The notes under the pieces were generated by a model, which was not told the DNA's origin, made no database searches, and saw only the letters and a program-made list of their open reading frames with translations. This document shows positions 8,463 to 64,000 of a stretch of 64,000 nt of DNA, piece by piece (the first letter of the stretch is position 1; each line of letters starts with the position of its first letter). The translations under genes were made by a program, and so were the position numbers. Origin of the DNA: Chloroflexota bacterium (GTDB taxonomy: Bacteria; Chloroflexota; UBA11872). The stretch spans positions 259 through 64,258 of the forward strand of contig CBDCOK010000001.1 in assembly GCA_965219705.1 (NCBI GenBank). The letters run 5' to 3'.

Positions 8463-8466
8463 TTCC

Positions 8467-15432: not shown

Positions 15433-15562
15433 GAGCGTGCTCGAAACGCGAAAACCGTTGTTGTCGTTCCGGTTGGCGGCGCGGTTCCTGTTGCGCGCGC
15501 CAGGCTGGAGGTTCTCGGCGTTGTTGTTCCACGAGCCGCCGCGCAGCACGCGACGGCCGGGG
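15433..15562 (-). repeat. DGR template repeat (TR)
   Basis: Minus-strand sequence CGTGCTGCGCGGCGGCTCGTGG-AACAACAACGCCGAGAACCTCCAGCCTGGCGCGCGCAACAGGAACCGCGCCGCCAACCGGAACGACAACAAC-GGTTTTCGCGTTTCGAGCACGCTC. In the target reading frame it would encode RGGSWNNNAENLQPGARNRNRAANRNDNNGFRV. Differences from VR-A lie almost entirely at TR adenines. It starts ~8 nt after the RT stop. Confidence 0.8.
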
Positions 15563-16598: not shown

Positions 16599-17304
16599 AA
16601 TCGTCGACGTAGCGCACATACGGCGCGCCGAGGGCCTCGGTGACGAAGTGGTCGAAGCGGTCGAGGTAGACGTTGGCGAAGAACTGGCTCGTCAGGTTGC
16701 CGATCGGCAGACCGCGCCGCCGCTCGTACGGCGTGAACAGGTCGTCGCCCGGATAGTAGATGTGCACCGGCTCCTGCGGGTTCGAGCCGTCCACGATCCG
16801 GTCGAGCACCACCAGCGTCCGCCGGCACGCGATGCGACGCCGGAGGTCGGCCTTCAGCACCTCGTGGTCGATGGCCGGGAAGTAGCGGAAGACGTCGCCG
16901 CGCAGGACCCAGCGGTATCGGTCGCGCAGCCGCTCGTAGCGCGCCACCGCGCGGTGCGTCCCCTTGCCCGCGCGGTTGGCGTAGCTGTGCGCGATGAACC
17001 CCCGCTCGAACACCGGCGCGACCACCGAGTGCACCGCGTGGTGCACCACCCGGTCGCGGAACGGCGCGGCCGAGATCATTCGGCGCTTCGGGTCGCGGAT
17101 CTCGAACGAGACGAAGCCGCCCGGCCGCCATGTCCCCGCCCGCAGTTCGCGCTCCAGCCGCAGGACCTCCGGCTCCAGGTTCGCGAGAAACCCCGCCGGC
17201 ACCGGCACCCGGCGCTTACCCGCCGCCGCACGCTGGGCCGCCGCGCACAGCGCCTCGAACGTCGCGATTCGCTCGAACAGCCCGTCAGCCCTGCGCCGCC
17301 TCAT
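16599..17304 (-). CDS. DGR reverse transcriptase, exon 1 (ATG at 17304; fingers and palm through YVDD)
   Basis: MRRRRADGLFERIATFEALCAAAQRAA...FRDRVVHHAVHSVVAPVFERGFIAHSYANRAGKGTHRAVARYE...GLPIGNLTSQFFANVYLDRFDHFV...APYVRYVDD. The IGNLTSQ motif is DGR-specific. The ORF then reads into the intron (DDCAPRRRGKEAEMAT*). Confidence 0.8.
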
Positions 17305-17602
17305 CCGCCTTCCGCCAGCCCCCGACGAGCCGGCCGGTCTCGTCGAGGACGCGCGCCGCGTGCTCGTAACGGCGCTCGTCGAGGTGCCCGAGATCCTTCG
17401 CGAGCCGGCACAGCAACCGCAGCTTCTCGATGCCCAGGTTGGCCGCCTGCAGGTGCCGGCGACGGTCCCGCGAATACGTCGCCTCGACCAGCCGCTCCAG
17501 CACGTCGAGCGCCGTCGCCTGCAGCCGATCCCCCAGCAGAAACTTCTGGCGGCGGGGAAACTTCTCCACCGTCGGCACCAGCCACAGCACGAACCCGTAC
17601 AT
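17285..17602 (-). CDS. avd: Avd-like DGR accessory variability determinant (four-helix-bundle family), ~105 aa
   Basis: MYGFVLWLVPTVEKFPRRQKFLLGDRLQATALDVLERLVEATYSRDRRRHLQAANLGIEKLRLLCRLAKDLGHLDERRYEHAARVLDETGRLVGGWRK follows the Avd / 23S-rRNA-IVS four-helix-bundle pattern (..FPK.eRf.L..ri...a....). It overlaps the RT start by 20 nt. Confidence 0.65.
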   Translation of the reverse strand: MYGFVLWLVPTVEKFPRRQKFLLGDRLQATALDVLERLVEATYSRDRRRHLQAANLGIEKLRLLCRLAKDLGHLDERRYEHAARVLDETGRLVGGWRKADEAAQG

Positions 17603-17743
17603 CGACTCCAGCGCGGGACCCGTCCGACGCCCGCCCCGGCCACGTCCGTCCGACGACGACACCATCCCGAATCCTGGGGGGCAACGCCCGGGCAACGCCC
17701 CCCAGACCCCCCTGAAAGATGTAAAGAGCTGAAGGGTCAAGAG

Positions 17744-29645: not shown

Positions 29646-29891
29646 CAATGAATCCAGGCGGTTTCTGGCCGCGCGTGGCGGCGAAGCGGGGTTGACGTAG
29701 TGGGCGTTATGCGACGCCGGCCGGGGCGGCCAGGCAGGGCAGGCTGCGGAACAACTCGCGGCAATGCTCCTCGAGGCCGTATCGAACGACGTCCGCGGCG
29801 GGCTCGATGCGCCATACCAACCTGAGCCTGAGTCCCCGAATCGGCCTTCCCCGTGGTAGGTTGGCTCTTCTCAGCAAAGGAGCAGAACACC
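29646..29891 (+). promoter_or_regulatory. Conserved ~250-bp leader of DGR-target paralogues (copy B); begins CAATGAATCC, contains GGGCGTTATG(C/G)GACGCCGG
   Basis: Near-identical leaders at 44686-44934 and 55345-55576. RBS AAAGGAG 8 nt before the ATG. Confidence 0.5.
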
Positions 29892-31460
29892 ATGCGGACC
29901 GTTGCCGACTCGATGCTGGTTCTGTGCGCGTTGGTGTGCACGGCGTCGGTGGCCTCGGCGCAGCCGCCGGTGGGTGCGCTGGCGATCGACGAGCGGCAGG
30001 GCGACCAGTATGGCTGGGCGGTGGACTACGAGACGGCGGGCGCCGCGCAGGCGCGGGCGCTCGGCGAGTGCGGCGCTGGTTGCCGGGTGGTGTTGACGTT
30101 CAACCGTTGCGCCGCCTACGCGGTAGATCAGGACGCGGACAGCACGGCGGTGGGCTGGGCGGAATCGTTCACGTCGTCGTCGTCGGCCCAGCAGGCGGCG
30201 CTGTCGGAATGCAGCTCACGGGGCGGTTCCGGTTGCGTCGTTCGGGTGTGGGGCTGCAACGGCCCGGTGGTCGAGGAGGCTCTGGGGCTCGACCGCGGGG
30301 CGCGTCAGCAGATTCAGCGGGGCCTGCAGTCGGCGGGCTTCGACCCGGGCGGTGCGGACGGCTTGTTCGGTCCGCGCACGCGCGCAGCGATTCGGCGCTG
30401 GCAGACGTCCCGTGGTTCTCGCGCGACGGGCTATCTGGATGGCGCGTCGGTGGCGGCGCTGCGACCGTCGGCACCGGGTCAGCCGACGTTCCGCCAGCGG
30501 GAGGCGGTCGGTGCGGACACGGCTGCGGCACCTGCCGTCTCCGCGCCGCCGCCGCCAGCGGCCTCCGCCGAGCTCGAGGGGCTGTTCTGGCAGTCGGTCA
30601 TGAACAGCACGAACCCGTCGGAGTTCGAGGCGTATCTGCGGCGGTTCCCGAACGGGCTGTTCAGCGAGCTGGCCGAGGCCCGTCTGGCGGCGCTGCGCGC
30701 GCCGGCGGGCGGGCCGCCGGGTGCGGCAGGGGCGGCGGTCGGCGGCGCCAGGCCGACCTCGGGTTCGCGGGCCTCCGGGGCGACGGCGCCGGCATCCGGG
30801 TCGCGGGTCGGCGCCGGGCCCGGGCGGGGCTTCGGTGCGGCGGCCGGCGCGGACGCTCGTCCCCGGCCGGGCGCGGTGTTCCGGGACTGCGACGTGTGCC
30901 CGGAGATGGTGGTGATGCCGGACGGCCGCCTGGCACTGGGCCGCTACGAGGTGACGGTGGGCGAGTATGGGGCGTTCGCGGCGGCGACGGGGGGCGGCGC
31001 GGGCGCCGGATGCATCACCGTTGGCGATGGCGATTCGTGGCGGGACCCCGGCTTTCCGCAGACGGATCGTCATCCTGTGACGTGCGTGAGCTGGGACGAC
31101 GCGCAGGCGTACGTGTCGTGGCTGAGCGGGCAGGCGGGGGCGACGTATCGGTTGCCGACGGAGACGGAATGGGACCGGGCGGCCGCGGGGTCCCAGCGCG
31201 GGTGCGACTATGGGCGGACGGACATCTTTGGCACGTGCCCGGTGGGCTCCTATGGGGCGAACGGCGCGGGTCTGTTCGGCATGGTCGGGAACTTGTGGGA
31301 ATGGACGCAGGACTGCTGGGAGGACTGTGGCCGCCGCGTGCTGCGCGGCGGCTCCTGGGACTTCGGCGCGGAGTTCCAGCGGCCCGGCGCGCGCTACTGG
31401 GACACCGCCGGCGGCCGGAGCGGCAACGTCGGTTTCCGTGTCGCGAGGACGCCGGATTAG
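29892..31460 (+). CDS. DGR-target paralogue B (same architecture as A); C-terminal VR at ~31329-31454
   Basis: MRTVADSMLVLCALVCTASVASAQPPVGALAIDERQGDQYGWAVDYETAGAAQ... ; ends RVLRGGSWDFGAEFQRPGARYWDTAGGRSGNVGFRVARTPD. Confidence 0.85.
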   Translation: MRTVADSMLVLCALVCTASVASAQPPVGALAIDERQGDQYGWAVDYETAGAAQARALGECGAGCRVVLTFNRCAAYAVDQDADSTAVGWAESFTSSSSAQQAALSECSSRGGSGCVVRVWGCNGPVVEEALGLDRGARQQIQRGLQSAGFDPGGADGLFGPRTRAAIRRWQTSRGSRATGYLDGASVAALRPSAPGQPTFRQREAVGADTAAAPAVSAPPPPAASAELEGLFWQSVMNSTNPSEFEAYLRRFPNGLFSELAEARLAALRAPAGGPPGAAGAAVGGARPTSGSRASGATAPASGSRVGAGPGRGFGAAAGADARPRPGAVFRDCDVCPEMVVMPDGRLALGRYEVTVGEYGAFAAATGGGAGAGCITVGDGDSWRDPGFPQTDRHPVTCVSWDDAQAYVSWLSGQAGATYRLPTETEWDRAAAGSQRGCDYGRTDIFGTCPVGSYGANGAGLFGMVGNLWEWTQDCWEDCGRRVLRGGSWDFGAEFQRPGARYWDTAGGRSGNVGFRVARTPD

Positions 31461-31707
31461 GTCTTGATTCTTTTCTTCTTTTAGTTCTTGGGGGGTCTGG
31501 GGGGCTGCGCCCCATAAGCGCTAACTTGTGTGGATCACATGGTTCTCGGGCAGCTCAGTCCAGCCGAAGTACGCGGAGAGTTGCGGTTGTCGGCGACGTG
31601 GCGGCTCCGCCAGCTCGCGGGAGATCGTTCGCCAGTCACTGATCAGGCGCGCCAGCGGGAGCGACGGTTCGATGGTGCGCGCGACCTGGTTGAGTACGAA
31701 CTTGAAG

Positions 31708-32067
31708 TCACGCCACGGGCTGCGGGGGCGCCGGCGCCGGCACGTCGTAGCCCCAGGGGGAAATCGCGCGGGCGTGGTGGATCAGCTTCTCCACCAACAG
31801 CGCCACGAACAGTTTCCCGTAGAGCCACGCCTTGGCGCTGTCGTCGTCGTACTTCGGCACGTGCCCCAACTGGGCCAGCGACTTGAAGCGCTTGAACACC
31901 AATTCGACCTGCCAGCGCAGGCGATACCACTCCAGCACGTCCGCGGCGGAAAAGGGCGGCTCGGGAAAGGTTGTCAAGACGATCACGTACTCGGCAAACC
32001 GCAGGGTGGCCGGTTGCACCTGCTTGCCTTTGCGGCTAGCGGCGCGACGGATCTTCTTGTGCGCCAA
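31708..32067 (-). pseudogene. IS4/IS5-superfamily DDE transposase C-terminal fragment
   Basis: ...VLEWYRLRWQVELVFKRFKSLAQLGHVPKYDDDSAKAWLYGKLFVALL is a typical DDE_Tnp_1 C-terminus. Confidence 0.45.
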
Positions 32068-32211
32068 GCGGATGGCTTCGGCCGACTTGATCTCGCTGAA
32101 CAGGCGGTGTTCGATGGGGGTTCCACTTCGACGTGGCGGGCGGGTAGTGGGCCACCCTCACCCGCAAGCCGTGTCGGTTGCAGAGGCGATGTTGCAGGTT
32201 CGGGTACCGAC

Positions 32212-44685: not shown

Positions 44686-44934
44686 CAATGAATCCGGGGG
44701 GGTTGTTCGCCTCAGGCGGGGGGCGAAGCGGGGTCAACGTAGTGGGCGTTATGGGACGCCGGCCTGGGGCGGCCAGGCCGGCCAGGCTGCGGAACAACTC
44801 GCGGCAATGCTCCTCGAGGCCGCATCGAACGACGTCCGCGGCGGGCTCGATGCGCCATGCCAACCTGAGCCTGAGTCCCCGAATCGGCCTTCCCCGTGGT
44901 AGGTTGGCTCTCCTCAGCAAAGGAGCGGAACACC
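44686..44934 (+). promoter_or_regulatory. Conserved leader of DGR-target paralogues (copy D)
   Basis: See 29646-29891. Confidence 0.5.
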
Positions 44935-46611
44935 ATGCGGACCGTTGCCGACTCGATGCTGGTTCTCTGCGCGTTGGTGTGCACGGCGTCGGTAGCCTCG
45001 GCGCAGACGCCGGTGGGGGCGCTGGCGACCGACGAAGGTGAGCAGTGGGGCTGGGCGGTGGACTACGAGACGGCGGGCGCCGCGCAGGCGCGGGCGCTCA
45101 GCGAGTGCGGCGGTGGTTGCCGGGTGGTGTTGACGTTCAACCGTTGCGCCGCCTACGCCGCGGACCAGGACGCGGCCAGCACGGCGGTGGGCTGGGCGGA
45201 ATCGTACGGCTCGGCGGCTGCGGCTCAGCAGGCGGCGCTGACTGAGTGCAGCTTGCGGGGCGGCTCTGGCTGCATCGTTCGGGTGTGGGGCTGCAACGGC
45301 CCGGTGGTCGAGGAGGGGTTGAGCCTCGACCGTGCGGCGCGTCGTCAGGTTCAGGAGGGCCTGCAGGCCGCCGGCTTCGACCCGGGCGGCGTGGACGGGA
45401 TGTTCGGTCCGCGGACGCGGGCGGCGATCCGGGGTTGGCAGTCGTCGCGGGGTGCGCGGCCGACGGGGTATCTGGACGGTCCGGGGGTCGAGGCGCTGCG
45501 GTCGGCCGGCGGTTCCGGTCCGGCGACGGGAGCCGCGTCCCCGGCGCCCGTGGCACGGCAGCCGGCGTCCACCGCTGCGCTGTCCGCGCCGCCCGCGGCC
45601 GGCGCGGAACTGGAGGGCCTGTTCTGGCAGTCCATCATGAACAGCGCGAACCCGGCGGAGTTCGAGGCGTATCTCGCGCAGTTCCCGAACGGGGTGTTCC
45701 GGGCCCTGGCCGAGGCCCGCCTGGCGGCGCTGCGCGCGCCGGCGGGTACTCCGTCCGGGGCGGCCGGGTCGCGAGTCGACGGCGCGGGGTCGCCGGCTGT
45801 CCGGTCACCGGTCCCGGGCGGGCGGGTCGCCGGAGCTCCCGCTCCAGCCGCCGGGATTGCCGCGGGCGACGCTGCGCGTCCGCGGCCGGGCGACGTGTTC
45901 CGGGACTGCGACGCCTGCCCGGAGCTGGTGGTGGTACCGGCGGGCCGGTTCCGGATGGGCTGCGTCTCCGGCACGGGCTGCCGGGACAGCGAGCTGCCGG
46001 TGCACGAGGTGGCGGTGGCGTCGTTCGCGCTGGGCGTGCACGAGGTGACGTTCGCGGAGTACGAACGCTTCGCCGCGGCGACGGGCCGTGACCGGCCGAA
46101 CGATCGAGGTTGGGGCGGGGGCGCCCGTCCGGTGATCAACGTGTCGTGGGAGGACGCGGCGGCCTACGCGGACTGGCTGTCCGGCGAGACGGGCGCGCGG
46201 TATCGGTTGCCGAGCGAGTCGGAGTGGGAGTATGCGGCGCGGGCCGGCGCCGAGACGGCGCACGCCTGGGGGAACGACATCGGCTTTCGCGAAGTCTGCA
46301 ACTGGGCGAACTACTATGGCTGCAGAGACGAGACGGAGCCGGTGGGCTCGTTAGCGGCGAACGGGTGGGGCCTGCACGACATGCACGGCAACGTGTTGGA
46401 GTGGGTGGCGGACTGCTGGCATCGCAGCTACGCGGGTGCACCGCGCGATGGCTCGGCGTGGACGAGCGGCGGTTGCGGTGCTCGTACATTGCGGGGCGGT
46501 TCCTGGAGGAACGGTAGTCTGGACAGTCTCCGCTCGGCCCACCGCGACACAGCCCCTGCCGGGCACCGGTTAGACACCTTCGGTTTTCGCGTGGCGAGGA
46601 CGCTGCGTTGA
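44935..46611 (+). CDS. DGR-target paralogue D (more canonical FGE-sulfatase/SUMF1-like domain); VR-like C-terminus ~46488-46608
   Basis: Same N-terminal architecture. C-terminus ...HGNVLEWVADCW...GARTLRGGSWRNGSLDSLRSAHRDTAPAGHRLDTFGFRVARTLR. The 3' end GGTTTTCGCGTGGCGAGGACGCTG resembles the VR-A 3' end. Confidence 0.8.
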   Translation: MRTVADSMLVLCALVCTASVASAQTPVGALATDEGEQWGWAVDYETAGAAQARALSECGGGCRVVLTFNRCAAYAADQDAASTAVGWAESYGSAAAAQQAALTECSLRGGSGCIVRVWGCNGPVVEEGLSLDRAARRQVQEGLQAAGFDPGGVDGMFGPRTRAAIRGWQSSRGARPTGYLDGPGVEALRSAGGSGPATGAASPAPVARQPASTAALSAPPAAGAELEGLFWQSIMNSANPAEFEAYLAQFPNGVFRALAEARLAALRAPAGTPSGAAGSRVDGAGSPAVRSPVPGGRVAGAPAPAAGIAAGDAARPRPGDVFRDCDACPELVVVPAGRFRMGCVSGTGCRDSELPVHEVAVASFALGVHEVTFAEYERFAAATGRDRPNDRGWGGGARPVINVSWEDAAAYADWLSGETGARYRLPSESEWEYAARAGAETAHAWGNDIGFREVCNWANYYGCRDETEPVGSLAANGWGLHDMHGNVLEWVADCWHRSYAGAPRDGSAWTSGGCGARTLRGGSWRNGSLDSLRSAHRDTAPAGHRLDTFGFRVARTLR

Positions 46612-46638: not shown

Positions 46639-46676
46639 TAGGGTACCGACCAGATCCGTGTAGAAATACACCCTAA
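46639..46676 (+). repeat. Tn3-family-type terminal inverted repeat remnant (GGGTACCGACCAGATCCGTGTAGAAATACACCCTAAC)
   Basis: Resembles the 51412 inverted repeat (GGGTACCGAC...CGTGT...ATACAC..CTAA). Probably the outer end of the Tn3 relative whose tnpA C-terminus is at 48272-48954, now separated by the IS5 insertion. Confidence 0.35.
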
Positions 46677-48165
46677 CAGCCCGTGGCGAAAGTCAGGGGA
46701 TCCGCACTCGACCGGCTCGATCGAGTTCCGTACACTGGACGGCATGGCGATGGGCAAGAAACCGGCGGCTCGACAGCCGTCGCCGATGTGGGTGACCACG
46801 GCGGACCTTCCGACGAACGCCGGGCATCCCTTCTTCGAGCGTCTGAACCGGGTCCTGGAGGAGGCAGGCTTCGACGCCTTCGTCGAGGGACTGTGCGGGG
46901 CGTTCTACGCTGCGCGGATGGGCCGGCCGAGTCTACGGCCGGGCCGGTATTTCCGTCTGCTGTTCATCGGCTATTTCGAAGGGTTGTCCTCCGAGCGGGG
47001 GATCGCGTGGCGGGTGGCCGATTCGCTGAGTCTGCGGTCGTTTCTGGACCTGGACGTGACCGAGGCGGCACCGGACCACTCGACGTTGTCGCGCACGCGG
47101 CGGCTGATCGACGTGGAGACGCACGTGGCGGTTTTCACGTGGGTGTTGGAGCGGCTCTCCGCTGCAGGCCTGTTGCGGGGGAAGACGGTCGGCATCGATG
47201 CGACGACGCTGGAAGCGAACGCGGCGATGCGGAGCATCGAGCGTCGGGACACGGGCGAATCCTACGAGGCGTTCATTCGGCGGTTGGCGGAAGCGTCGGG
47301 GGTGGAGACACCGACACAGGCGGATCTGGCTCGGTTCGACCGGTCGCGGAAGAACAAGAAGACGTCGAACAAGGAGTGGAAATCGCCGCAGGACCCGGAC
47401 GCGAAGGTCGCGAAGATGAAGGACGGCCGGACGCACTTGGCTCACAAGGCCGAGCACGGGGTCGACATGGACACGGGGGCCATCGTGTCGGTGACGGTGC
47501 AGGATGCATCCGACGGCGATACGGCCACGCTGCCGGAGACGCTGATCACGGCGGCCGAGCAGGTGGAGTTGGTGGCGCCGGACGGTCCGGGGGTCGAAGA
47601 GGTGGTCGCCGACAAGGGGTACCACAGCGACGCGACGCTGGTGGCCCTCGGCGAGGTGGGGGTTCGGAGTCACGTATCGGAGCCGGAGCGCGGCCGGCGC
47701 TGCTGGCAGGACAAGAGGACGGGAGAGACGCCGCCGGAGAAGCGCGCTGCGCAGAAGGCGCTGTATGCGAACCGCCGGCGTGTGGGCGGGCGGCGGGGTC
47801 GTCGCCTGCAACGCTGCCGGGGCGAGGTGGTGGAGCGTTCTTTCGCACACATGTATGAGACAGGGGGAATGCGTCGGGTGTGGGTGCGCGGTCACGAGAA
47901 TGTCCGCAAGCGGGTGCTGATCCAGGCGGCCGCCTGCAACATCGGGCTGCTCCTGCGCCACCAGACCGGCATCGGTACGCCCCGGAGCCTGCAGGGGCGG
48001 GCTCTTTCGGCGATTTGCCGCCTGATCGACCGTCTGATCGACCGCTGGGGGCGTCTGACGCGCGCCTGGGGGTTCAAATGGACACCGACGGCCCTCGTCG
48101 GCTCAATTGCTCATCGCCAAGCTGCCTGAACAGCAGGGCTCAGCGATCAGACTTCTTCCACGGGC
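46667..48165 (+). mobile_element. IS5/IS1182-family IS (~1.5 kb); transposase 46744-48129 (461 aa)
   Basis: Transposase ...HPFFERLNRVLEEAGFDAFVEGLCGAFYAARMGRPSLRPGRYFRLLFIGYFEGLSSERGIAWRVADSLSL... (IS1182 group). Terminal inverted repeats CAGCCCGTGGCGAAAGTC and GACTTCTTCCACGGGCTGC. Confidence 0.75.
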
Positions 48166-48275
48166 TGCTAAGGACAGTGATCGATATAGATTTGCCGACT
48201 TCCGCAGGGCCCAGCCCCTTTTCGCTGCTCGGCACGCCCTGCACACGGCAAGGTAATTTCCGGCAGCATCCTAAG
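48166..48275 (+). repeat. 110-bp repeat starting with the ISAzo13-type terminal sequence CTAAGGACAGTGATCGATATAGATTTGCC; direct copy at 49125-49235
   Basis: ~95% identical to 49125-49235. The first ~35 nt match the IS end at 5631-5661. Confidence 0.55.
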
Positions 48276-48954
48276 CGTTTCGCGGTGCCCGACGGTCGCC
48301 GCCTGGCCAGCGGTATTCCCCGGTCAGGTTGATGTGCTCCCAGCCGAGCGGCGAGACGTGGGCCAGGAGTTCGCCCGGGATCTCGAGCCCGGCTTGCCTC
48401 CTCGCGAAGACGGCGTCGCCGAGCTTCAACGTGTTCCAGTAGATGATGATCGCGGCCAGCAGGTTGAGGCGACCCGGTAGTGCTGCCCTTCGCCGGTTCG
48501 GTCCTGCAGCTCGCCGCGTTGGTGAAAGTTGATCGCGCGCTTGAGGGCGTGGTGCGCCTCGCCCTTTGTTCAACCCGACCTGGACCCGACGTCGCATCCC
48601 GGGGTCGGTGGTCCAGTCGATCATGAACAGGGAGCATTCGACGCGACGCGGCCGACCTCCCGCGGCGAGCTTGCGTAGGCTCTGGCTGGGCCGCATGGTC
48701 CCGGCGGCCATGGTCGCCGCCACGCGCAGGATGTCCGCCCAGTTCCGGTCGATCAGGTCCACGTTCACCTTGCCGCCGACCAGCGGGCGCAGGAGCTTCG
48801 GGACGTCCGCGCGGTCGAACACGTAGAGGCGCTTCGACGGCAGGTCCCGGATGCGCGGGACGAAGGCGTAGCCGAGGATCGAGCACGCGGCGAAGACGTG
48901 GTCGGTATGCCCGCAGAACAGCAGCCCGCCAAAGACGCGTCCCACCGCGCGCAC
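48272..48954 (-). pseudogene. Tn3-family transposase C-terminal fragment (third Tn3 relative), degenerate
   Basis: ...ECSLFMIDWTTDPGMRRRVQVGLNKG... and ...LNLLAAIIIYWNTLKLGDAVFARRQAGLEIPGELLAHVSPLGWEHINLTGEYRW match the conserved Tn3 TnpA C-terminal region. Confidence 0.55.
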
Positions 48955-49124
48955 TCAGCACGATGGCAGTATCCCGAGTTGCTCGAGGAGGGATACGTCC
49001 CCGTTCCCGTTGGATTCCTCCGCCACTATGCGAGCCTGAAGCCGTACCCGCTCACCTCGGGGGAGGCACTCTTCGTCGTCCACCTGATGGCGTTCAAATG
49101 GGACAGCGACTCGCCGTTTCCGTC

Positions 49125-49235
49125 CTTAGGACAGTGATCGATATAAATTTGCCGACTTCCGCAGGGCCCAGCCCCTCTTTCGCTGCTCGGCACGCCCTGC
49201 ACACGGCAAGATAATTTCCGGCAACATCCTTACAA
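49125..49235 (+). repeat. Second copy of the 110-bp ISAzo13-end-like repeat
   Basis: See 48166-48275. Confidence 0.55.
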
Positions 49236-49481
49236 GAGGCTCGCCTCGAGAATGGGCGTTTCGGTCAAGATGGCACGGCGCCACGCGCAGAGCCTCGATC
49301 AGAAGGGCTACCTCCGTCGCCTGGTCCGCGTCGGCCAGACCAACCGCTTCAACCTCACGCCGTTGTTCGACGCCCTGCGGTCGGCCGTCATGACACGGCG
49401 CGCACCGTCGACACAGGCGCAAGAGTCCGCGCCAGAACGACTGGTTGACTTGCCGGCGTGAGCCTCCCCCGCGCGACCGAA

Positions 49482-49613
49482 CTCGACCAGCCGCTCCAGC
49501 ACGTCGAGCGCCGTCACCTGCAGCCGGTCGCCCAGCAGGAACTTCTGCCGCTGCGGGAACTTCTCCACCGTCGGCACCAGCCACCCCCAGGAGGAAGAGA
49601 ACAGAAGAATCAA
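49482..49613 (-). pseudogene. avd: Avd gene 5' fragment (remnant of a second DGR cassette next to target C)
   Basis: WLVPTVEKFPQRQKFLLGDRLQVTALDVLERLVE is ~90% identical to Avd at 17285-17602. Homology ends after ~44 codons. Confidence 0.55.
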
Positions 49614-49616
49614 GAC

Positions 49617-51173
49617 CTAATCAAGCGTCCTCGCGACACGGAAACCGAAGTCGGTGACCCGGCCGCGGACGTGGTCCCAGAAGCGCGCGCCGGGCCGCTC
49701 CGCGACGTCGTACCAGGAGCCGCCGCGCAGCACGCGATGGACGCAGTCGCCCTCCCAGCAGTCCTCCGTCCATTCCGACAGGTTCCCGACCATGTCGAAC
49801 AGGCCCGCGCCGTTCGCACCGTACGAGCCGACCGGGCACGTGCTAAGGTTCCCAGTCCGCTCACGGTCGCAGCCGCGCTGGGAACCCGCCGCCGCCCGGT
49901 CCCATTCCGCCTCGGTCGGCAAGCGATAAGTCGCCCCGGCCGTCCGGCTCAGCCACGACACATACGCCTGCGCGTCGTCCCAGCTCACGCACGTCACAGG
50001 ATGACGGTCCGTCTGCGGAAAGCCCGGGTCCCGCCGCGAATCGCCGCCAAAGGTGAGGCATCCGCCGCCCGCACCGCCGCCCGTCGCCGACGTGAACGCC
50101 CCATACTCGCCCACCGTCACCTCGTAGCGGCCCAGCGCGAGACGGCCGTCCGGCATCACCACCATCTCCGGGCACACCTCGCAGTCCCGGAACACCGCGC
50201 CCGGCTGCGGACGCGCGTCCGCGCCGGCCGCAGGCCCGCCGACCCGCGACCCGGACGCCGCCGCGGAGGCGCCGGAGACGCGCGAACCCGAAGCCGCGGT
50301 CCCGGCGCCGCCGCCGCGCGCCCCTGCCGCGCCGGACGCCCCGCCCGCCGGCGCGCCCAGCGCTGTCAGCCGGGCCTCGGCCAGCTCGCTGAACAGCCCG
50401 TTCGGGAACCGCCGCAGATACGCCTCGAACTCCGATGGGTTCGTGCTGTTCATGATTGACTGCCAGAACAGGCCCTCGAGCTCGGCAGAGGCGGCCGGCG
50501 CGGCCGCTGGCGGTGGCTGCGGCGGCGGCGCGGAGACGGCAGGCGGCGCAGCCGCGGCGGCGGCGGCCGGCTCCCGCTGGCGGAACGTCGGCTGACCCGG
50601 TGCCGACGGCCGCAGCGCCGCCGCCGACGGCCCATCCAGATAGCCCGTTGCGCGAGAACCCCGAGACGTCTGCCAGCGCCGAATCGCTGCGCGCGTGCGC
50701 GGACCGAACAAGCCGTCCGCACCGCCCGGGTCGAAGCCCGCCGACTGCAGGCCCCGCTGAATCTGCTGACGCGCCCCACGGTCGAGGCCCAGACCCTCCT
50801 CGACCACCGGGCCGTTGCAGCCCCACACCCGAACGAGGCATCCTGTGCCGCCACGCGAGCTGCACTCAGTCAGCGCACGCTGGCGGGCGCCGGCCGGCGA
50901 GGAGTACGACTCCCCCCAACCCACCGCCGTGCTGTCCGCGTCCTGGTCCGCCGCGTACGCGGCGCAGCGCTCGAACGTCAGCACCACCGAGCAGCCCGAG
51001 CCGCACTCCGACAGCACCCGCTGGCGAGCGGCCGCCGCCGTCTCGTAGTCGACTGCCCACCCCCACCGGTCGCCCTGGCGTTCGTCGACCGCCAGCGCAC
51101 CCACCGGCGGCTGCGCCGCGGGCGCCGACGCCATCCGCAGCAACACCCAGAAGACGAGCGCCAATCGGACCAT
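49617..51173 (-). CDS. DGR-target paralogue C (full length); VR at ~49623-49739
   Basis: MVRLALVFWVLLRMASAPAAQPPVGALAVDERQGDRWGWAVDYETAAAARQ... ; ends RVLRGGSWYDVAERPGARFWDHVRGRVTDFGFRVARTLD. Confidence 0.85.
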   Translation of the reverse strand: MVRLALVFWVLLRMASAPAAQPPVGALAVDERQGDRWGWAVDYETAAAARQRVLSECGSGCSVVLTFERCAAYAADQDADSTAVGWGESYSSPAGARQRALTECSSRGGTGCLVRVWGCNGPVVEEGLGLDRGARQQIQRGLQSAGFDPGGADGLFGPRTRAAIRRWQTSRGSRATGYLDGPSAAALRPSAPGQPTFRQREPAAAAAAAPPAVSAPPPQPPPAAAPAASAELEGLFWQSIMNSTNPSEFEAYLRRFPNGLFSELAEARLTALGAPAGGASGAAGARGGGAGTAASGSRVSGASAAASGSRVGGPAAGADARPQPGAVFRDCEVCPEMVVMPDGRLALGRYEVTVGEYGAFTSATGGGAGGGCLTFGGDSRRDPGFPQTDRHPVTCVSWDDAQAYVSWLSRTAGATYRLPTEAEWDRAAAGSQRGCDRERTGNLSTCPVGSYGANGAGLFDMVGNLSEWTEDCWEGDCVHRVLRGGSWYDVAERPGARFWDHVRGRVTDFGFRVARTLD

Positions 51174-51443
51174 CGGGAACCTCCTCGAAGTCGTTGCACC
51201 CCCGCCGGCCCGCGCGCCAGGCCCGCCACGACGGCTGCCGCGATCCTATCGCCGGTGTCCGTTGCAGCAAACCGCGAGTTGTCCTGCTCCGCCGGTCCTT
51301 GTTGGCAATCTTCTGAAACCGCGGTGTATGTTCCAGCTGGACATACAACGCGGTGGACTAAACCGCTACGGCGGTAGACGCTCAGTCGACCCGCCGGCAC
51401 TGCCGCGTCCAGGGTACCGACACCATTCGTGTTGTGATACACG

Positions 51444-54359
51444 CTAAGGGCGTCGCATCTTGAGCTTGGCGGGGTCGATCTTGATCTCGCCGTAGAGGAT
51501 GACGTTCTTCCACTCGATCGGGCTGACATGCCGCAGCAGATCGGGGTCGACCGGGAAGTCCGGCGCGGTGGCCAGCCGTGAGATCTCCCGGGCCTGCCAG
51601 TAGACGATGCAGGCGAGAATCAAGGTCAGGCACGAGCACGCGTTCATCTGGTCGTAGACATCGCGGGCGCTGATGCGCCCCCGCTGCCCGTAGTAGACGG
51701 CGCGCGCCAGGGCGTGGAGCTGCTCGACCTTGAGCAGGCCCCGCCGCACCTTCGCTCGCAGCTGCGGCTCGGACATGTACTGCAGCACGAATTCGGTCTT
51801 CAGCGCCCGGCCGAGCTCGCGGTTGGCGGCGTAGAAGCGGTTCGAGGCCTGGAAGCGGTTGAGCCTCTGCAGGGCGGCCGACGCCGTGGCGTGCCCTGCG
51901 GGGAACGCCGCGTAGAACTGGCCGATGCGGTCCCACTGCTCGGCGATGAGGCGGAAGTTCACCGCCCGCCGGCCGCGCTTGAGGACCGGCTCGAGGACGC
52001 CGTGGTCGCGGTCCGGGTCGGCGCAGTAGATCCGCTGGCGGTGCAGGCTGCGGATGCGCGGGCAGAACCGCATGCCGACCATCCCGAAGGCCGCGAAGTT
52101 GATCTCGGTGTAGCCGTGGGTGTCGGTGTAGTGCTCTTCGAGGTCGAGGTCGCTCTCGTGGTAGAGCACGCCGTCGAGCACGAAGGGCGCGTCGCGGTCG
52201 GTGCACTCGATCGGGCGGCTGTAGAACGGGGCGTAGTTGTCGGCGACGAAGGAGTAGAACTCAAGCGCGAAGTCGTTGAAGCGCGTGCTGTAGGTCCGCT
52301 GCAGCACCTTGTGCGGCATGGCGAAGCGCTGTCCGTCGCTGGCCGACGTCGTGCCGTCGCCCCAATAGCCGGCGGCGTCGAGGCGGGAGATGCCGTGGAC
52401 GATGGCGGCGAGCGCGGCCCGCTGGTTCTCCTCGACGAGACGCCAATCGCTGACGTACTTGAGCCGCCTGTAGGCGATGTCGGGGGCGACCTTCTCCATG
52501 GTGTACAGGCCGAGGTTGCAGCCGTGGGCGAGGATCGCGGCGAGCAGCGCGCACACCTCCCCGGGGTCGACCCGCTTCTCGCCGGGCTGCTGGAAGTGGA
52601 CGCTGAACCCGAGGTCGTTCTCGACCTCGATGAGCAGGTCGGCCAGCCGGATCGAGCGGCTGCGGGCGTCCAGCCAGCGGTGGAGTTCGGTGAGGCTGTC
52701 CGATTGCGCCGGGTCGGGCTGCTCGGCCGCGTCCGTCTTCAGTCGCCACCCGTCGTCGTCGAACGCGACCTGCCGGTTGTCAGCGACACCTTCCAGGAAC
52801 CGGTCGAACGCATCCGACAGACGCGCCTTCAGTTGCTCGACCGCCGCAGCGGGATCGACGGGGAACCCGGTTCGCACCCAGAACGCTTCGCGGACCTGCT
52901 CCCACCGCGCGGCGGGCAGGAAGAACGCCTCGAACCGGCCGAAGTTCTTCGCGCCGTCGATGGCGAGGTTGCCGGTCTGGATCTCGTCGCGCACCTTGAG
53001 GAACAACGCGCTCTCCCAGCGTCGGCGGTCCGTCACGCCGTCATGGCGGATGAGCGGCTGCAGCGCCGCCGGGGCGAAGTCGAGCGGCGCATGGGGCGGA
53101 GCGCCGCGGCGCCCCGCCGCGCGGTGTTCGCGGTAGGCCCGCAGCGCCGACAGCGTCGGCGACGTCCCCTCGCCCTGCTCGTCGACGAACTTCATCCTGC
53201 TCAGAAACGGCCCGGCGAACTGGCTCAGCCCGGCGTGCCGCTCGACCGTCTGCTCGAAGCGGGCCTTCCGGTCGCCCCGCGTCCAGTTCACCAGGTCGGA
53301 CTGGTCCTCGCGCAGCTGCGCCTCGGGCACGGTTGACAGCAGCCGGACCCGCAACTCGTCGTCGCCGACGTCGGGATCGAGCAGCACCGCGCCGAGCTGG
53401 CGGTAGCGGTGAACGATCCGGTCGACGGCCTGGCGTTGCGCCTTGAGCATGTCGTCGAGGCGGGTCTCGACCAGCTTGCGATTGCGGTCGAGGAGCTTGC
53501 CGTACATGTCGACGGCTTGGTCGAGCGTGTCGCGCCACGTCTGGTGCAGGAAGCACACCAGCGCGAGGTGACGGCGTGGGGCCGCCATCCTGCGCACCCG
53601 GTCGGCTGACGCGGTTCGCACGCTGTGGAACAGGATCCGCTGGTAGTTGCCGTTGACCCAGTCCACGTTGACTCCCAGTACGCCGGTCGCCTCGATCAGT
53701 TCCAGCCGCGCCAGCAGCCGCTTCATGCCCCCGACCGACGGGTTCGACGAACTCGCCTTGATCCGGTTCAAGGGCGAGTGCGGCTGGTCGTCGTCGACGG
53801 CGACCAGCGCGTCAAGACCTTCGCGCATCGGTGCCGACAGGCGCTCGGCCATGCGTTGCGTCAGCAACGTCCGGGCCTTGTGTCGGGCCGCCCCTATCGC
53901 GCGGCGCAACACCGGATCGGACGGTGCGAGAACGTGCTCGTCGCGGAGCCAGGCGCGCGCCCGAGCCAGCAGCGAGGCGGTCCGCTCGAGCCGCAACGCC
54001 TCGTCCTCGAGGAACCGCGCCAGCCGTTCTCCGGCGGCGGCCTCGAAAGCGCGCAGACGCAGGTACTCGCCGATGCGCTGCTGATGCTCCGAGACCGTCT
54101 GCTGCCGGCTGGCGTAGGCGTGGATCGTCTCGGCGTCGGCGCCTAGCTGCAGGGCCGCGAACCTCAGGATCTCCCCGTCGATCTCCAGGGGCGTCTGTTG
54201 GGGGAATCTGCCGAGCACACGCACGAAGGCGACCTGGTACGCGAAACCCAACCGGTTGTGGGAGCCCCGCCGCAGGGCGATCTCGCGGCGGTCGGCCTCG
54301 AGGAAGGTGGCATCGCGGACCAAGCGGGGGCGGGAGACGTCGGGGTCGGAGACCGGCAC
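51444..54359 (-). CDS. tnpA: Tn3-family transposase TnpA (971 aa)
   Basis: Full-length: N-terminal DUF4158-like region, central ...GEKRVDPGEVCALLAAILAHGCNLGLYTMEKV..., C-terminal DDE region ...DTHGYTEINFAAFGMVGMRFCPRIRSL...MNACSCLTLILACIVYW. Confidence 0.85.
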   Translation of the reverse strand: MPVSDPDVSRPRLVRDATFLEADRREIALRRGSHNRLGFAYQVAFVRVLGRFPQQTPLEIDGEILRFAALQLGADAETIHAYASRQQTVSEHQQRIGEYLRLRAFEAAAGERLARFLEDEALRLERTASLLARARAWLRDEHVLAPSDPVLRRAIGAARHKARTLLTQRMAERLSAPMREGLDALVAVDDDQPHSPLNRIKASSSNPSVGGMKRLLARLELIEATGVLGVNVDWVNGNYQRILFHSVRTASADRVRRMAAPRRHLALVCFLHQTWRDTLDQAVDMYGKLLDRNRKLVETRLDDMLKAQRQAVDRIVHRYRQLGAVLLDPDVGDDELRVRLLSTVPEAQLREDQSDLVNWTRGDRKARFEQTVERHAGLSQFAGPFLSRMKFVDEQGEGTSPTLSALRAYREHRAAGRRGAPPHAPLDFAPAALQPLIRHDGVTDRRRWESALFLKVRDEIQTGNLAIDGAKNFGRFEAFFLPAARWEQVREAFWVRTGFPVDPAAAVEQLKARLSDAFDRFLEGVADNRQVAFDDDGWRLKTDAAEQPDPAQSDSLTELHRWLDARSRSIRLADLLIEVENDLGFSVHFQQPGEKRVDPGEVCALLAAILAHGCNLGLYTMEKVAPDIAYRRLKYVSDWRLVEENQRAALAAIVHGISRLDAAGYWGDGTTSASDGQRFAMPHKVLQRTYSTRFNDFALEFYSFVADNYAPFYSRPIECTDRDAPFVLDGVLYHESDLDLEEHYTDTHGYTEINFAAFGMVGMRFCPRIRSLHRQRIYCADPDRDHGVLEPVLKRGRRAVNFRLIAEQWDRIGQFYAAFPAGHATASAALQRLNRFQASNRFYAANRELGRALKTEFVLQYMSEPQLRAKVRRGLLKVEQLHALARAVYYGQRGRISARDVYDQMNACSCLTLILACIVYWQAREISRLATAPDFPVDPDLLRHVSPIEWKNVILYGEIKIDPAKLKMRRP

Positions 54360-55093: not shown

Positions 55094-55344
55094 CGTGTAT
55101 CAGAGCACGAATGGTGTCGGTACCCTTGAGGAGAACGAGGACCGCCGCGTCGAGCTCGAAACCCACCGGAGGCCGACGGCTCGAGGCACTCTCGACCACG
55201 TCGCCGACTGCACGAGGCGGACGCTGACGCACCCGCCATCCGGACGGGCCGGTCAGCGCCGTGCGATAGATGGCCCCCGACGCACCTGAGGCATGTCCGG
55301 GCGGCGCAACGCCGGATCGAGTCGGCCGCCTCGGCGGGTTCGGG

Positions 55345-55576
55345 CAATGAATCCTGGTGTTTTCGGCCGCTGGGGCGGGGCAACGCCAAGTTAACGTAGT
55401 GGGCGTTATCAGACGCCGGCCTGGGGCGGCTAGGCTGCGGAACAACTCGCGGCAATACTCCTCGAGGACGTATCGAACGATGTCCGCGGCGGGCTCGATG
55501 CGCCATGCCAACCTGAGTCCCCGCATCGGCCTTCCCCGTGGTAGGTTGGCTCTTCTCAGCAAAGGAGCAGAACACC
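55345..55576 (+). promoter_or_regulatory. Conserved leader of DGR-target paralogues (copy E)
   Basis: See 29646-29891. Confidence 0.5.
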
Positions 55577-55868
55577 ATGCGGACCGTTGCCGACTCGATG
55601 CTCGTTCTCTGCGCGCTGGTGTGCACGGCGTCGGTAGCCTCGGCGCAGCCGCCGGTGGGCGCGCTGGCGGTCGACGAGCGGCAGGGCGACCAGTATGGCT
55701 GGGCGGTGGACTACGAGACGGCGGGCGCGGCGCAGGCGCTCAGCGAGTGCGGCGCTGGTTGCCGGGTGGTGTTGACGTTCAACCGTTGCGCCGCGTATGC
55801 GGCGGACCAGGACGCGGACAGCACGGCGGTGGGCTGGGCGGAATCGTTCACGTCGTCGTCTGCAGGGC
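55577..55868 (+). pseudogene. DGR-target paralogue E, 5' fragment only (~97 codons)
   Basis: MRTVADSMLVLCALVCTASVASAQPPVGALAVDERQGDQYGWAVDYETAGAAQALSECGAGCRVVLTFNRCAAYAADQDADSTAVGWAESFTSSS, then unrelated sequence. The motif GGTTATGGGACGCC follows at 55974. Confidence 0.7.
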
Positions 55869-62656: not shown

Positions 62657-64000
62657 TGCACAAGCCTCCCAGCCGCGCCCGCACCACCCTCACCAACCGC
62701 TCCCCCTCCGCAAAGCACTCTTCTAGCTCGGCCAGCAGCTGCGGGTACTTCTCCGCGAACGGCTCGCCGTCGTCATGCTGCTCTTCGGCACCGACGAAAC
62801 GGCCGGGAGTGAGCACGAAGTCGTGTTTGGCGATCCCCGCGATCGTCTCAGCCTTGCAGAAGCCGGGGATGTCCCGGTAGACCCACACGCCGTGCTGCGC
62901 CTCCTCCCACCAGTCGGGCGCGGGCTCGCTGCGCCACTGGCGGAACGCGTAGACGATACGGCCGAGGTCGGAATCGACGTTCGGGTCGCCCATGCCATCG
63001 GCCAGCATGCTTTCGCCGTCGTCGCCGCCGGTAAGCACGCGCAGGGTGCGGGTCTGCATCGTGCCGAGCTTACGGGCGTCGATGAAGAGCGTCTCGCCCT
63101 TGCGGTCGCGCCCACCGTGCTTGAGGTTCTTGCCAATCTTGTTGCGAGCGAGGAACCAGAGGCAGGCAGGGATGCCCGTGGTGAGGAAGAGTTGGGCCGG
63201 TAGCGCGACGATGCAATCAACCAGGTCGGCCTCGACGATGCGCTGGCGGATCTCACCCTCACCGACGGAGCCGGTGGACAACGAGCCGTTGGCCATGACG
63301 AAGCCAGCAACCCCGCCGCCGCGGCCGTTAGGCGACGAGAGGTGGTGGATGAAGTGCTGGATCCAGGCGTAGTTGGCGTTGCCGACCGGCGGCGTACCAT
63401 AGCGCCAGCGCACGTCGTCGGCCAGCAGTTTGCCCGACCAGTCCGAGATGTTGAACGGCGGATTGGCGAGGATGTAGTCGGCCTTGAGGTCGGGGTGCAG
63501 GTTGCACAGGAAGCTGTCGGCGGGCTGAGAGCCAAGGTTGGCCTCGATGCCGCGGATGGCCAAGTTCATGTGCGCCAGCCGCCAGGTGGTGGGATTGGAC
63601 TCCTGGCCGAAAATCGAGATGTCGGTCTTCTGCCCGCCGTGGGCTTCCACGAAGCGCTCGGATTGCACGAACATGCCGGCCGAGCCGCAGCAAGGGTCGT
63701 AGACGCGGCCCTCGTAGGGTTCGAGCATTTCGACTAGCAGCCGCACGATGCAGCGCGGCGTAAAGAACTCGCCACCGAGCTTGCCCTCGGCCTGGGCGAA
63801 CTTGCCGAGGAAATACTCGTAGACGCGGCCGAGCGTGTCGCGAGCTTTGGCGCGATCGCCCCTGAAGCCGATGTCGGCGATCAGGTCGATCAGCCCCTTC
63901 ATCTTCTCCGGCGCGATGCTGCGACGGGCGTAGTCGCGCGGCAGCTTGCCCTTGAGGTTCGGGTTGTCGCGCTCGACAGCGAGGATGGCATCATCGATCA
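62646..64000 (-). CDS. hsdM: Type I restriction-modification N6-adenine methyltransferase (HsdM), 5' end beyond window
   Basis: [24 protein letters not shown] (SAM-binding motif I), ILANPPFN (motif IV). The reading frame stays open to the window edge (...[32 protein letters not shown] upstream of the first Met). Confidence 0.9.

Follow-up and report, generated by a model that had tools for sequence, protein, structure and literature searches.

The window analysed here, which is the whole 64-kb stretch of DNA, contains a degenerate DGR locus organized around target paralogue C. This gene is an intact 518-aa ORF on the minus strand (49617..51173), and its product comprises DUF4189 (Pfam E-value 4.4e-16), PG_binding_1 (4e-12), and a C-terminal FGE-sulfatase (C-type-lectin-like) domain (3.3e-38). 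The variable region (VR) of C (49624..49743, minus strand) lies at the C-terminus of the protein, in this C-type-lectin/FGE-type domain, and has a 6-nt in-frame gap relative to both paralogue B and the template repeat (TR) of the window. The gene is followed by a 32-nt post-target spacer (49585..49616, minus strand), which is homologous to the conserved pre-hairpin spacer of intact cassettes and approximately 72% identical to that of cassette A, and then by an avd stump (49482..49583, minus strand; WLVPTVEKFPQRQKFLLGDRLQVTALDVLERLVE) corresponding to codons 7–40 of the 105-codon avd. No record with exactly the protein of target C was found.

Cassette A, located at 15.4–19.3 kb of the same window, served as the reference. 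Its complete avd (17285..17602, minus strand) encodes 105 aa, with the start codon set by conservation among relatives, and matches NCBIfam DivGenRetAVD at 100.6 bits (cutoff 80) and Pfam bAvd at 7e-17. The RT is encoded in two exons, identified by tblastn at 17304-16594 and 15978-15571 and separated by a putative intron of 651 nt (16599/15947), and the template repeat (15434..15559, minus strand) equals VR_A (17751-17870) except at adenine sites and one 6-nt gap. The sister paralogue B, together with its spacer and a shortened hairpin (31497-31513), occupies 29853..31513 of the plus strand.

Related loci, denoted by L numbers below, were obtained by scanning a genome collection with the spliced RT. 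The nearest belong to Vicinamibacterales genomes, with 88–91% RT identity, and every intact relative shows the same order: target, spacer, hairpin, avd, RT, TR. In gene order, spacer, hairpin, and avd, the cassettes of the Vicinamibacterales MAGs (L059, L001, L004, and L062) resemble cassette A.

Identity and extent of the avd stump

The segment at 49482-49583 is a relic of an avd gene, positioned next to a DGR-type target gene. A blastn comparison of the region with the 64-kb window aligned 49482-49584 (minus strand) with 17483-17585 over 103 nt at 91.26% identity (E 4e-36), and when the 64 kb were searched by tblastn with the Avd protein, the only match besides the complete gene was 49583-49482 (34 aa, 94% identity, E 1e-17), where 32 of the 34 residues are the same as in Avd A. 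Codon-by-codon comparison showed an exact register with avd A from W7 to E40, with similarity breaking off sharply at both ends. A sequence-only reading of this DNA had proposed a truncated avd on the minus strand adjoining target C, roughly 90% identical to the avd beside the RT; both points are confirmed, the identity being 91.3%, and the nucleotide alignment to 17470-17602, whose absence that reading had named as grounds for abandoning the idea, exists. The 44 surviving codons that it reported must be corrected to 34, which is also the length of the peptide it quoted.

The homology is confined to residues 7–40, so that the stump does not amount to a full-length four-helix-bundle Avd of about 105 aa (NF033474 DivGenRetAVD / PF22296 bAvd), and the 101-aa ORF containing it has no Pfam match. 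No start codon, ribosome-binding site, or hairpin accompanies it. Of the nine nucleotide differences between the stump and avd A, seven are at third codon positions (dS 0.28, dN 0.035, omega 0.13, Fisher p 0.005), and from this predominance of synonymous change it follows that the C-linked avd was functional during most of its past. The avd consensus codons are retained nearly throughout, R17Q being the sole change at a near-invariant residue (R in 35 of 36 relatives). Nucleotide identity is 93% to the avd of L059 and L001, compared with 91% to avd A.

Junctions and missing elements

Alignments with cassette A and with the relatives place an internal deletion junction at 49584..49585 (minus strand). 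The segment missing at this point, approximately 110–121 nt long and corresponding to 17586-17706 in cassette A (121 nt), comprises the GC hairpin (CTGGGGGGC-NNN-GCCCCCCAG), the intergenic sequence, the ribosome-binding site GGAG, and the start of avd from its ATG through codon 6. The stump is thus an internal fragment rather than a simple 3' truncation, since 5' parts present in cassette A and in all intact relatives are also absent. DNA folding recovered the 9-bp hairpin stem in A, L059, and L001 and none in C; the stem is also present in L004, L005, and L007. No GC-rich hairpin or cruciform follows the VR of C, and only a 5-bp remnant of the stem is left in B.

The second junction, at 49481..49482 after codon 40, marks the end of all similarity to any DGR cassette, in agreement with the earlier observation that homology stops past the stump and unrelated sequence follows. 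A helix-turn-helix gene convergent with the stump has its stop codon 20 nt from this point. The junction matches none of the Tn3, IS, or repeat ends; a Tn3 inverted repeat in particular was rejected for lack of similarity, and 49231-49481 found no match in 79 related loci. With no mobile-element end at the 3' junction and a plain internal deletion as the 5' lesion, the proposal that mobile elements mediated the loss is left unsupported.

Mobile elements and neighbouring genes

The DNA on the 3' side of the stump is crowded with mobile sequences. A plasmid-type helix-turn-helix ORF (48898..49461, plus strand), convergent with the stump, is split by a 100-bp element; the product of the re-joined ORF matches helix-turn-helix proteins encoded on Klebsiella plasmids of 3.4 kb, at 29% identity and 95% coverage (E 2e-8), and a megablast search of 48900-51400 against plasmids returned no match. 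Excision of the 100-bp element with one flanking repeat (104 nt) causes a frameshift, which implies either that the insertion model is incomplete or that the gene is a pseudogene; the latter is probable.

Copies of the small repeat element are found at 48172..48267 (plus strand, flanked on each side by CTAA, between the IS and the tnpA-fragment stop codon) and at 49129..49228 (plus strand, flanked on each side by CTTA), as two repeats of about 100–106 bp (48168-48272 and 49125-49230) that are 95% identical. A Tn3-family tnpA fragment encoding the C-terminal 227 aa occupies 48271..48954 of the minus strand; its DDE_Tnp_Tn3 match (Pfam E 4.2e-47, profile positions 179–389 of 389) bears out an assignment already suggested from sequence. 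The IS (46678..48167, plus strand), which has inverted repeats of 18 bp (CAGCCCGTGG...) and a target-site duplication, CTAA, belongs to the IS1182/IS5 type. Its transposase is of the DUF772/DDE_Tnp_1 kind and scores highest in NCBIfam against IS1182 and IS5, in both cases below cutoff. The insertion point is the inner end of an inverted repeat of Tn3 type (46641-46677), which itself directly abuts paralogue D. The repeats had previously been described as 110-bp, ISAzo13-end-like sequences. They are real, but nothing supports the ISAzo13 label: by the Pfam and NCBIfam matches the neighbouring IS is of IS1182/IS5 type, and the repeats lie outside its inverted repeats (46678, 48167).

Search for a second RT and template

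The C locus contains no DGR-type RT gene. A tblastn search with the RT, permitting E-values up to 50, found no RT homology beyond 49482 and, in the whole window, only the known RT of cassette A, which answers in the negative the earlier question whether low-stringency searching would reveal RT homology there. The best additional match, 63345-63731 (E 0.06), was taken as noise, as it falls within an ORF whose translation, read by eye, contains an NPPF methyltransferase motif. No second TR is present anywhere in the window, 15434-15559 being the only template repeat, and the TRs of nine related loci were excluded as the missing template, each showing 14–28 non-adenine mismatches. The metagenome matches to target C, of which the best has 62% amino-acid identity, included no intact version of the lost cassette.

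Variable regions of B and C and their common template

Of the target copies in the window, A alone agrees with the resident TR; D is a poor fit, and B and C do not match it. VR_C differs from the TR at 17 adenine sites and at 12 core non-adenine positions, so the TR is not its cognate template, which would differ at adenines alone. VR_B likewise has 12 core non-adenine mismatches, nine of them common to both, whereas VR_A has essentially none. The shared non-adenine states of the B/C consensus include ...GCGGAG...CGGCCCGGCGCGCGC...GGTTTCCGTGTCGCGAG.

Comparison between the two sisters reveals, indirectly, the signature of adenine-directed mutagenesis at the C locus. All 15 substitutions between VR_B and VR_C fall at positions 1–2 of NNC codons; ten are located where the TR of the window has adenine and five where it does not, and some of these five are adenine in TRs of related genomes. 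Third codon positions are 97% identical within the VR, against 81–83% identity in flanking sequence, and the VR shows dS 0.033 and dN 0.215 compared with a flanking dS of 0.27. Outside the VR, dN/dS between C and B is about 0.27–0.37. Because B and C share their mismatches to the TR and differ from each other at positions 1–2 only, they were evidently written by a single shared template, which does not occur in the window. By the same sequence evidence, a second DGR, distinct from that at 15.4–19.3 kb, must have served both.

Drift of a single TR after B and C became disconnected was considered as an alternative source of these mismatches and rejected, since at most 1–2 non-adenine sites separate B from C, against 12 that separate each of them from the TR, and since the states of the TR are common to the TRs of L059 and L062. 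The TR of the window is also 93% identical to that of L059, indicating that it has undergone no recent change.

The same data make it very improbable that C and its stump are a recent partial copy of target A and avd A, for which no second DGR would be needed. The 91% identity of the stump to avd A and the presence of both loci within one window would accord with such a copy. VR_C, however, carries 12 core non-adenine mismatches to TR_A where VR_A has essentially none, and the non-adenine states of TR_A, being common to the L059 and L062 TRs, leave no room for recent drift away from B and C. Targets C and A have diverged to a dS of ~0.55 (77% nucleotide identity), and the stump is at least as near to the avd of other genomes (93% for L059 and L001). 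Recent gene conversion, suggested by 91% identity in avd against 75% in the target, was also rejected: the gap in identity is mainly non-synonymous change, the dS values of 0.28 and ~0.55 differ at borderline significance only over 34 codons, and the same contrast between avd and target is seen between cassette A and L059.

The stump thus evidently stems from a DGR lineage other than that of cassette A. The sequence-only reading had further held that the whole cassette was duplicated within this genome, which is unsupported, the stump being 93% identical to the L059 and L001 avd versus 91% to avd A and target divergence being alike in all directions. Such equal closeness to other genomes suggests that the split between the cassettes is as old as that between the genomes, or that the second cassette arrived by transfer.

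Origin of the stump

We give about an even chance to the explanation that the stump is the remnant of the avd' of a second DGR, that C was its cassette-proximal target, and that RT' and TR' were lost by deletion. Under this model, target C was probably once followed by the spacer, the GC hairpin, avd', RT', and TR', in that order, and RT' and TR' would have lain directly downstream of the stump. One deletion, amid Tn3-type and IS reshuffling, would have taken out avd' from codon 41 onward together with RT' and TR' and brought the end of an unrelated plasmid-type gene up against the stump; another, internal and of ~110–121 nt, would have eliminated avd' codons 1–6 along with the hairpin and the ribosome-binding site. 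Target C itself persists as an intact gene under selection, while its VR would be frozen. The homology of the stump, its functional past, the distinct template, and the gene order of relatives all speak for this account, as do two features of the related group: several complete DGR loci in a single genome (for example, the pairs L003/L005 and L007/L009, each pair from one genome), and an internal avd-RT deletion in L062 that fuses avd codons 1–55 to RT residues 130–361. Two independent lesions at one locus also fit the progressive erosion of dead DNA.

Several observations weigh against it. The A–C target genes have a dS of ~0.55, compared with a somewhat smaller value of 0.28 in the stump, a borderline difference with 34 codons (binomial p 0.04), and the 3' junction coincides with no recognizable mobile-element end. 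Traces of RT' and TR' are absent from the window at low stringency, so that their adjacency to the stump is deduced rather than seen; of the proposal that a complete target-avd-RT cassette once stood here, the genuine avd relic and the need for a second DGR stand, while the adjacency of RT and TR to this avd copy does not emerge from the data. Finally, related loci show that an avd stump can be a duplication scar. In L059, 3031-4285 duplicates 8456-9728 at 91% identity, and the duplicate comprises the 3' part of the target, the spacer, the hairpin, and avd codons 1–17, with both VRs differing from the single TR of that locus at adenines only; in L004, a tandem duplication (7132-8128 / 8717-9720) ends near avd codon 6. 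The extra targets of these two loci, derived from partial segmental duplication, thus carry avd stumps.

Such scars lend some plausibility, though less than the deletion model has, to the possibility that C is itself an extra target copy whose duplicated segment ended in avd' codon 40, with RT' and TR' never adjoining it. The parent cassette would have served B and C in trans and would now be lost or lie outside the window, and the later deletion from hairpin to codon 6 would have disconnected C. L010, which has an extra target with a hairpin and without avd, offers a further parallel, and paralogues B, C, and D, which end at three different points within ~250 nt past their stop codons, resemble dispersed target copies rather than three former cassettes. 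The scars in L004 and L059 are nonetheless shorter (6 and 17 codons) and retain both the hairpin and the avd start, neither of which remains in the C stump, and the C stump is followed by the tail of an unrelated convergent gene rather than by the upstream region of a target. The two loci also differ in that the VR of the extra L059 target fits the TR of its own locus, whereas VR_C fits no TR compared. The synonymous-biased divergence of the stump fits both models and does not discriminate between them.

A third explanation, which we consider unlikely, is that B and C are still live targets of an intact second DGR outside the window, the stump being irrelevant debris. The low dS between VR_B and VR_C (0.03) implies that the last rewriting was recent relative to the B–C split, multiple DGRs per genome occur in the related group, and scattered targets have been described for other DGRs, such as that of Treponema denticola (PMC5758913). 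Yet C lacks the hairpin that all intact relatives keep and that is needed for efficient homing in Bordetella phage (PMC3240598), the stem in B is down to its 5-bp remnant, and VR_C has the 6-nt gap relative to B. We regard VR_C as now frozen. That a second DGR, unseen here, still diversifies B and C in trans, or, as a variant, that recurrent avd stumps mark a dedicated target-copying mechanism, appears more doubtful still. If true, the former would make C a naturally occurring example of retrohoming to a remote target without a hairpin; the more speculative variant would attribute the stumps at codon 6 (L004), 17 (L059), and 40 (here) to a dedicated mechanism instead of random segmental duplication.

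Comparison with characterized DGRs and implications

In the Bordetella phage BPP-1 cassette, the order is mtd-avd-TR-brt; the present group, in contrast, has the order target-avd-RT-TR, with the TR after the RT. The likeness to the BPP-1 DGR and to chromosomal DGRs with FGE/C-type-lectin targets, such as Treponema denticola TvpA, is otherwise considerable, including a target with a C-terminal FGE-sulfatase-type VR, an avd four-helix-bundle gene, and adenine differences between TR and VR. It extends to a GC-rich hairpin downstream of the VR, which in Bordetella phage, as a hairpin or cruciform, is the target recognition element for efficient homing (PMC3240598), and to multiple related targets, which in T. 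denticola are scattered (PMC5758913). The hairpin loop here is 3 nt, unlike the 4-nt GRNA loop of phage DGRs. Compared with canonical avd-containing DGRs, the C locus is reduced to its target, the spacer, and 34 codons of avd; an RT, a cognate TR, a hairpin, and an avd start are all absent.

Inactivated DGRs are frequent. In the survey of Wu et al. 2018, which reported a high level of them, more than half of the candidate DGRs were discarded for premature stops, truncations, or poor TR–VR matches (PMC5758913). The C locus is such a case, the ordinary decay of a DGR in DNA crowded with mobile elements, and because degenerate DGRs are so common the stump alone carries little weight. It differs from the surveyed cases in that the same 64 kb also contain a related, more complete cassette from a different lineage and three other target paralogues. 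Since two sister VRs are preserved in the same window, the lost template can be deduced from them even though the RT and TR are gone. For annotation, the locus cautions that a target paralogue near a DGR is not necessarily served by that DGR. Together with its relatives, it illustrates two processes in Vicinamibacterales-like genomes: the multiplication of targets by partial duplication, with avd stumps left behind, and the erosion of cassettes.

An internal avd fragment adjoins target C

Target C, one of the target-gene paralogues A to D, is an intact 518-aa open reading frame (ORF) on the minus strand (49617-51173) with DUF4189, PG_binding_1 and FGE-sulfatase domains. The avd remnant beside it, here called the stump, lies at 49482-49584 and aligns with 17483-17585 in the avd of cassette A, the window's diversity-generating retroelement (DGR), over 103 nt at 91.26% identity (blastn of 48000-52000 against the whole window, E 4e-36); the same match was recovered in a self-comparison of the window. 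The nucleotide-level homology proposed in the sequence-only reading is thereby borne out, and the 44 surviving codons counted there are in fact 34. When searched by tblastn across the 64 kb, the Avd protein of cassette A yielded two matches only, its own gene and 49583-49482 on the minus strand (query residues 28-61, 34 aa, 94% identity, E 1e-17). The two copies stay in exact codon register over the whole segment, which opens with TGG (W) and closes with GAG (E); beyond either end similarity is lost completely, and seven of the nine nucleotide differences fall at third codon positions. The stump is an internal avd fragment, codons 7-40 of 105, without means of expression as Avd. A 101-aa ORF with a TTG start at 49613 passes through it in frame and returned no family match.

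Cassette A comprises, on the minus strand, target A (17744-19279), avd (17285-17602; 105 aa), a reverse transcriptase (RT) gene starting at 17304 and the template repeat (TR; 15434-15559). Its Avd matches the NCBIfam equivalog DivGenRetAVD (100.6 bits, cutoff 80) and Pfam bAvd. Scanning the spliced RT against one genome per species identified 79 related loci, the nearest in RT belonging to Vicinamibacterales metagenome-assembled genomes (L059, 90%; L001, 88%; L062, 91% over a partial match). Behind the target stop codon, all intact relatives are built alike. A conserved spacer (about 35 nt) leads into a hairpin whose 9-bp GC stem carries a 3-nt loop (CTGGGGGGC-NNN-GCCCCCCAG); ~70 nt that vary in sequence separate this hairpin from a GGAG ribosome-binding site, after which come avd, beginning ATG-TAC..., RT and TR in that order. 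DGRs are known to recognise their targets through a GC-rich hairpin just 3' of the variable region (VR) (Guo et al. 2011, PMC3240598).

At C, 32 nt of the conserved spacer are all that separates the stop codon from avd codon 7. Missing at the 5' lesion (junction 49584/49585) are the hairpin, intergenic stretch, ribosome-binding site, ATG and codons 1-6, amounting to 121 nt by cassette A (17586-17706) or about 110 nt by the relatives, which lack an 11-nt duplication found in A. The 3' lesion ends the stump after codon 40 (junction 49481/49482). The locus does not qualify as a functional DGR, having no RT, cognate TR, hairpin or complete avd; it retains a DGR-type target and a VR bearing a mutagenesis signature.

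A second DGR lineage

Against the TR, VR_A shows 15 adenine-site differences, essentially no core non-adenine ones and one 6-nt gap, whereas VR_B and VR_C each show 17 adenine-site and 12 core non-adenine mismatches, nine of the latter in the same columns. Targets B and C are sisters (dS 0.27 to each other, about 0.55 to A). Their VRs differ at 15 positions, all at first or second positions of NNC codons; ten coincide with TR adenines and five with TR non-adenines, some of which are adenine in the TRs of related genomes. Third positions are 97% identical in these VRs (dS 0.033, dN 0.215) against 81-83% in the flanks. Both VRs were therefore overwritten, after the B-C split, by a single common template other than the window's TR. 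The stump belongs to a DGR lineage other than that of cassette A.

The alternative of a single TR that drifted after B and C became disconnected was rejected on two grounds: non-adenine differences between B and C are scarce, and L059 has a TR 93% identical to the window's, with states in common. Of nine related TRs considered as the missing template, not one fits B or C, and the 64-kb window yielded no second TR or RT and no further avd sequence. It is very improbable that B and C, the latter without a hairpin, are still live remote targets of a DGR outside the window. The second DGR existed whether the stump reflects decay or a duplication scar, and neither its RT nor its TR is present in these 64 kb.

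The divergence of the stump from avd A (dS 0.28, dN 0.035, omega 0.13; Fisher p 0.005) shows that the C-linked avd evolved as a functional gene over most of the period following the separation of the two lineages. Set against 36 intact relatives, the stump has the consensus codon nearly everywhere, R17Q being the sole change at a near-invariant residue, which suggests that inactivation was recent relative to that split. The avd copies of L059 and L001 are each 93% identical to the stump and avd A is 91% identical to it, and the targets of A, B/C, and L059 and L001 are roughly equidistant (75-77%); since these distances are similar in all directions, the separation of the two lineages dates back as far as that of these genomes. 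The second lineage could derive from either an ancient duplication or an independent acquisition, the data fitting both. Of the earlier proposal that the whole cassette was duplicated, the existence of a second DGR stands; duplication is not distinguished from independent acquisition. The contrast between 91% identity in avd and 75% in the target is mostly a non-synonymous rate difference and recurs between cassette A and L059.

Four full target paralogues lie within the 64 kb, with B at 29853-31460 and D at 44896-46611, together with a target N-terminal fragment (55340-55860); A alone among them fits the resident TR. Target D has a longer, canonical-looking FGE domain and many mismatches to the TR; it nevertheless retains the conserved VR end and spacer, with a Tn3-type inverted repeat (46641-46677) immediately adjoining the spacer.

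Mobile-element debris around the stump

The stump's neighbourhood is mobile-element debris. A plus-strand ORF (48898-49137 and 49252-49461) has its stop codon 20 nt past the avd break; re-joined, it matches helix-turn-helix proteins of 3.4-kb Klebsiella plasmids (29% identity over 95% of length, E 2e-8). A 100-bp element (49129-49228, CTTA-flanked) interrupts this ORF and has a 95% identical, CTAA-flanked copy at 48172-48267. This element has 4-bp flanking direct repeats (CTAA, CTTA) and no obvious terminal inverted repeats; its first 35 nt recur inverted at 5626-5660, right past the stop of a tyrosine-recombinase-like ORF near 5660. The Tn3 tnpA fragment reported previously was confirmed as a C-terminal portion at 48271-48954 (Pfam E 4e-47). 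Also on this side lies an insertion sequence (IS; 46678-48167) that is bounded by 18-bp inverted repeats (CAGCCCGTGG...), shows a duplicated CTAA and encodes a transposase of the DUF772/DDE_Tnp_1 type. The ISAzo13 label formerly attached to the 100-bp repeats finds no support: they lie outside the inverted repeats of this IS, whose transposase best matches IS1182 and IS5 in NCBIfam.

The avd junction at 49481/49482 matches none of the neighbouring Tn3, IS and repeat ends. Unlike the C break, the B break has a mobile element: in the 31497-32250 region the B hairpin is cut 5 nt into its 3' arm, followed by an IS4/IS5-like transposase fragment (31708-32067, minus strand) and a Tn3-family end (32202-33586; 96% identity with 51412-52795). 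Within 19587-21726, a ParA partition ATPase (NCBIfam ParA_partition, 229.6 bits, cutoff 180) and a possible Rep-like ORF are arranged head-to-head with cassette A. These genes, a type I restriction-modification system near 61-64 kb and the numerous Tn3, IS and recombinase fragments suggest that the window is a plasmid or integrated element.

Decay in place or partial duplication

Related loci illustrate both routes to a truncated avd. In L062, avd codons 1-55 are joined to RT residues 130-361, an internal deletion in place. In L059, 3031-4285 copies 8456-9728 at 91% and holds the target 3' part, spacer, hairpin and avd codons 1-17, and both VRs differ from its single TR at adenines only; L004 carries a tandem duplication ending at about avd codon 6. 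Because these extra copies end within avd, partial duplication can leave such a stump 3' of a target as its scar; at C, it would have made an extra target served in trans. That origin is possible but somewhat doubtful: the known scars are shorter than the C stump, there are two independent lesions at the locus, and the DNA 3' of the stump is unrelated sequence and not a further target unit. On these grounds decay in place is favoured, with roughly even chances of being correct: an avd, RT and TR of the second DGR would once have stood at the C locus and eroded there to the stump. In L059, the closest relative, short pieces duplicating its RT and post-TR sequence are also scattered upstream of the cassette (1785-1883, 6342-6374, 2623-2787 and 5417-5713; 94-100% identical), so duplicated-DGR debris is not peculiar to the window.

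Condition of cassette A

The post-VR hairpin of cassette A (17674-17705, minus strand) contains an 11-nt tandem duplication, GGGCGTTGCCC, giving a loop of 14 nt against 3 nt in relatives. In the Bordetella phage system, a loop 2 nt larger abolished homing (PMC3240598); by analogy, cassette A may be impaired too. VR_A (17751-17870) lacks 6 nt (GCCGAG) found in the TR and in the relatives' TRs, and all other differences are at adenines; either an in-frame deletion occurred during the last homing event or there has been no later rewriting of VR_A. The 6-nt gap of VR_C is a different one but falls in the same loop.

A 651-nt group II intron that contains no ORF interrupts the RT gene (15948-16598, minus strand; Rfam group-II-D1D4-2, 108 bits; Intron_gpII, 55.7 bits). 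It begins GTGCG directly after ...TACGTCGACGATT, and its removal restores YVDDFALFADD exactly as in uninterrupted relatives, so that one retroelement is inserted in the RT of another, within its catalytic YxDD box. No maturase encoded by this intron was seen in the window. A related intron, with an insert of roughly 1.3 kb, lies at 5374-7194 of L033.

Relation to known DGR relics

Inactivation is common among DGRs: in their survey, Wu et al. (2018) dropped more than half of their candidates on account of truncations, stop codons or poor TR-VR matches (PMC5758913), and DGRs with several targets, some scattered, are already known (PMC5758913). The C locus is a further example of this already known kind of relic.
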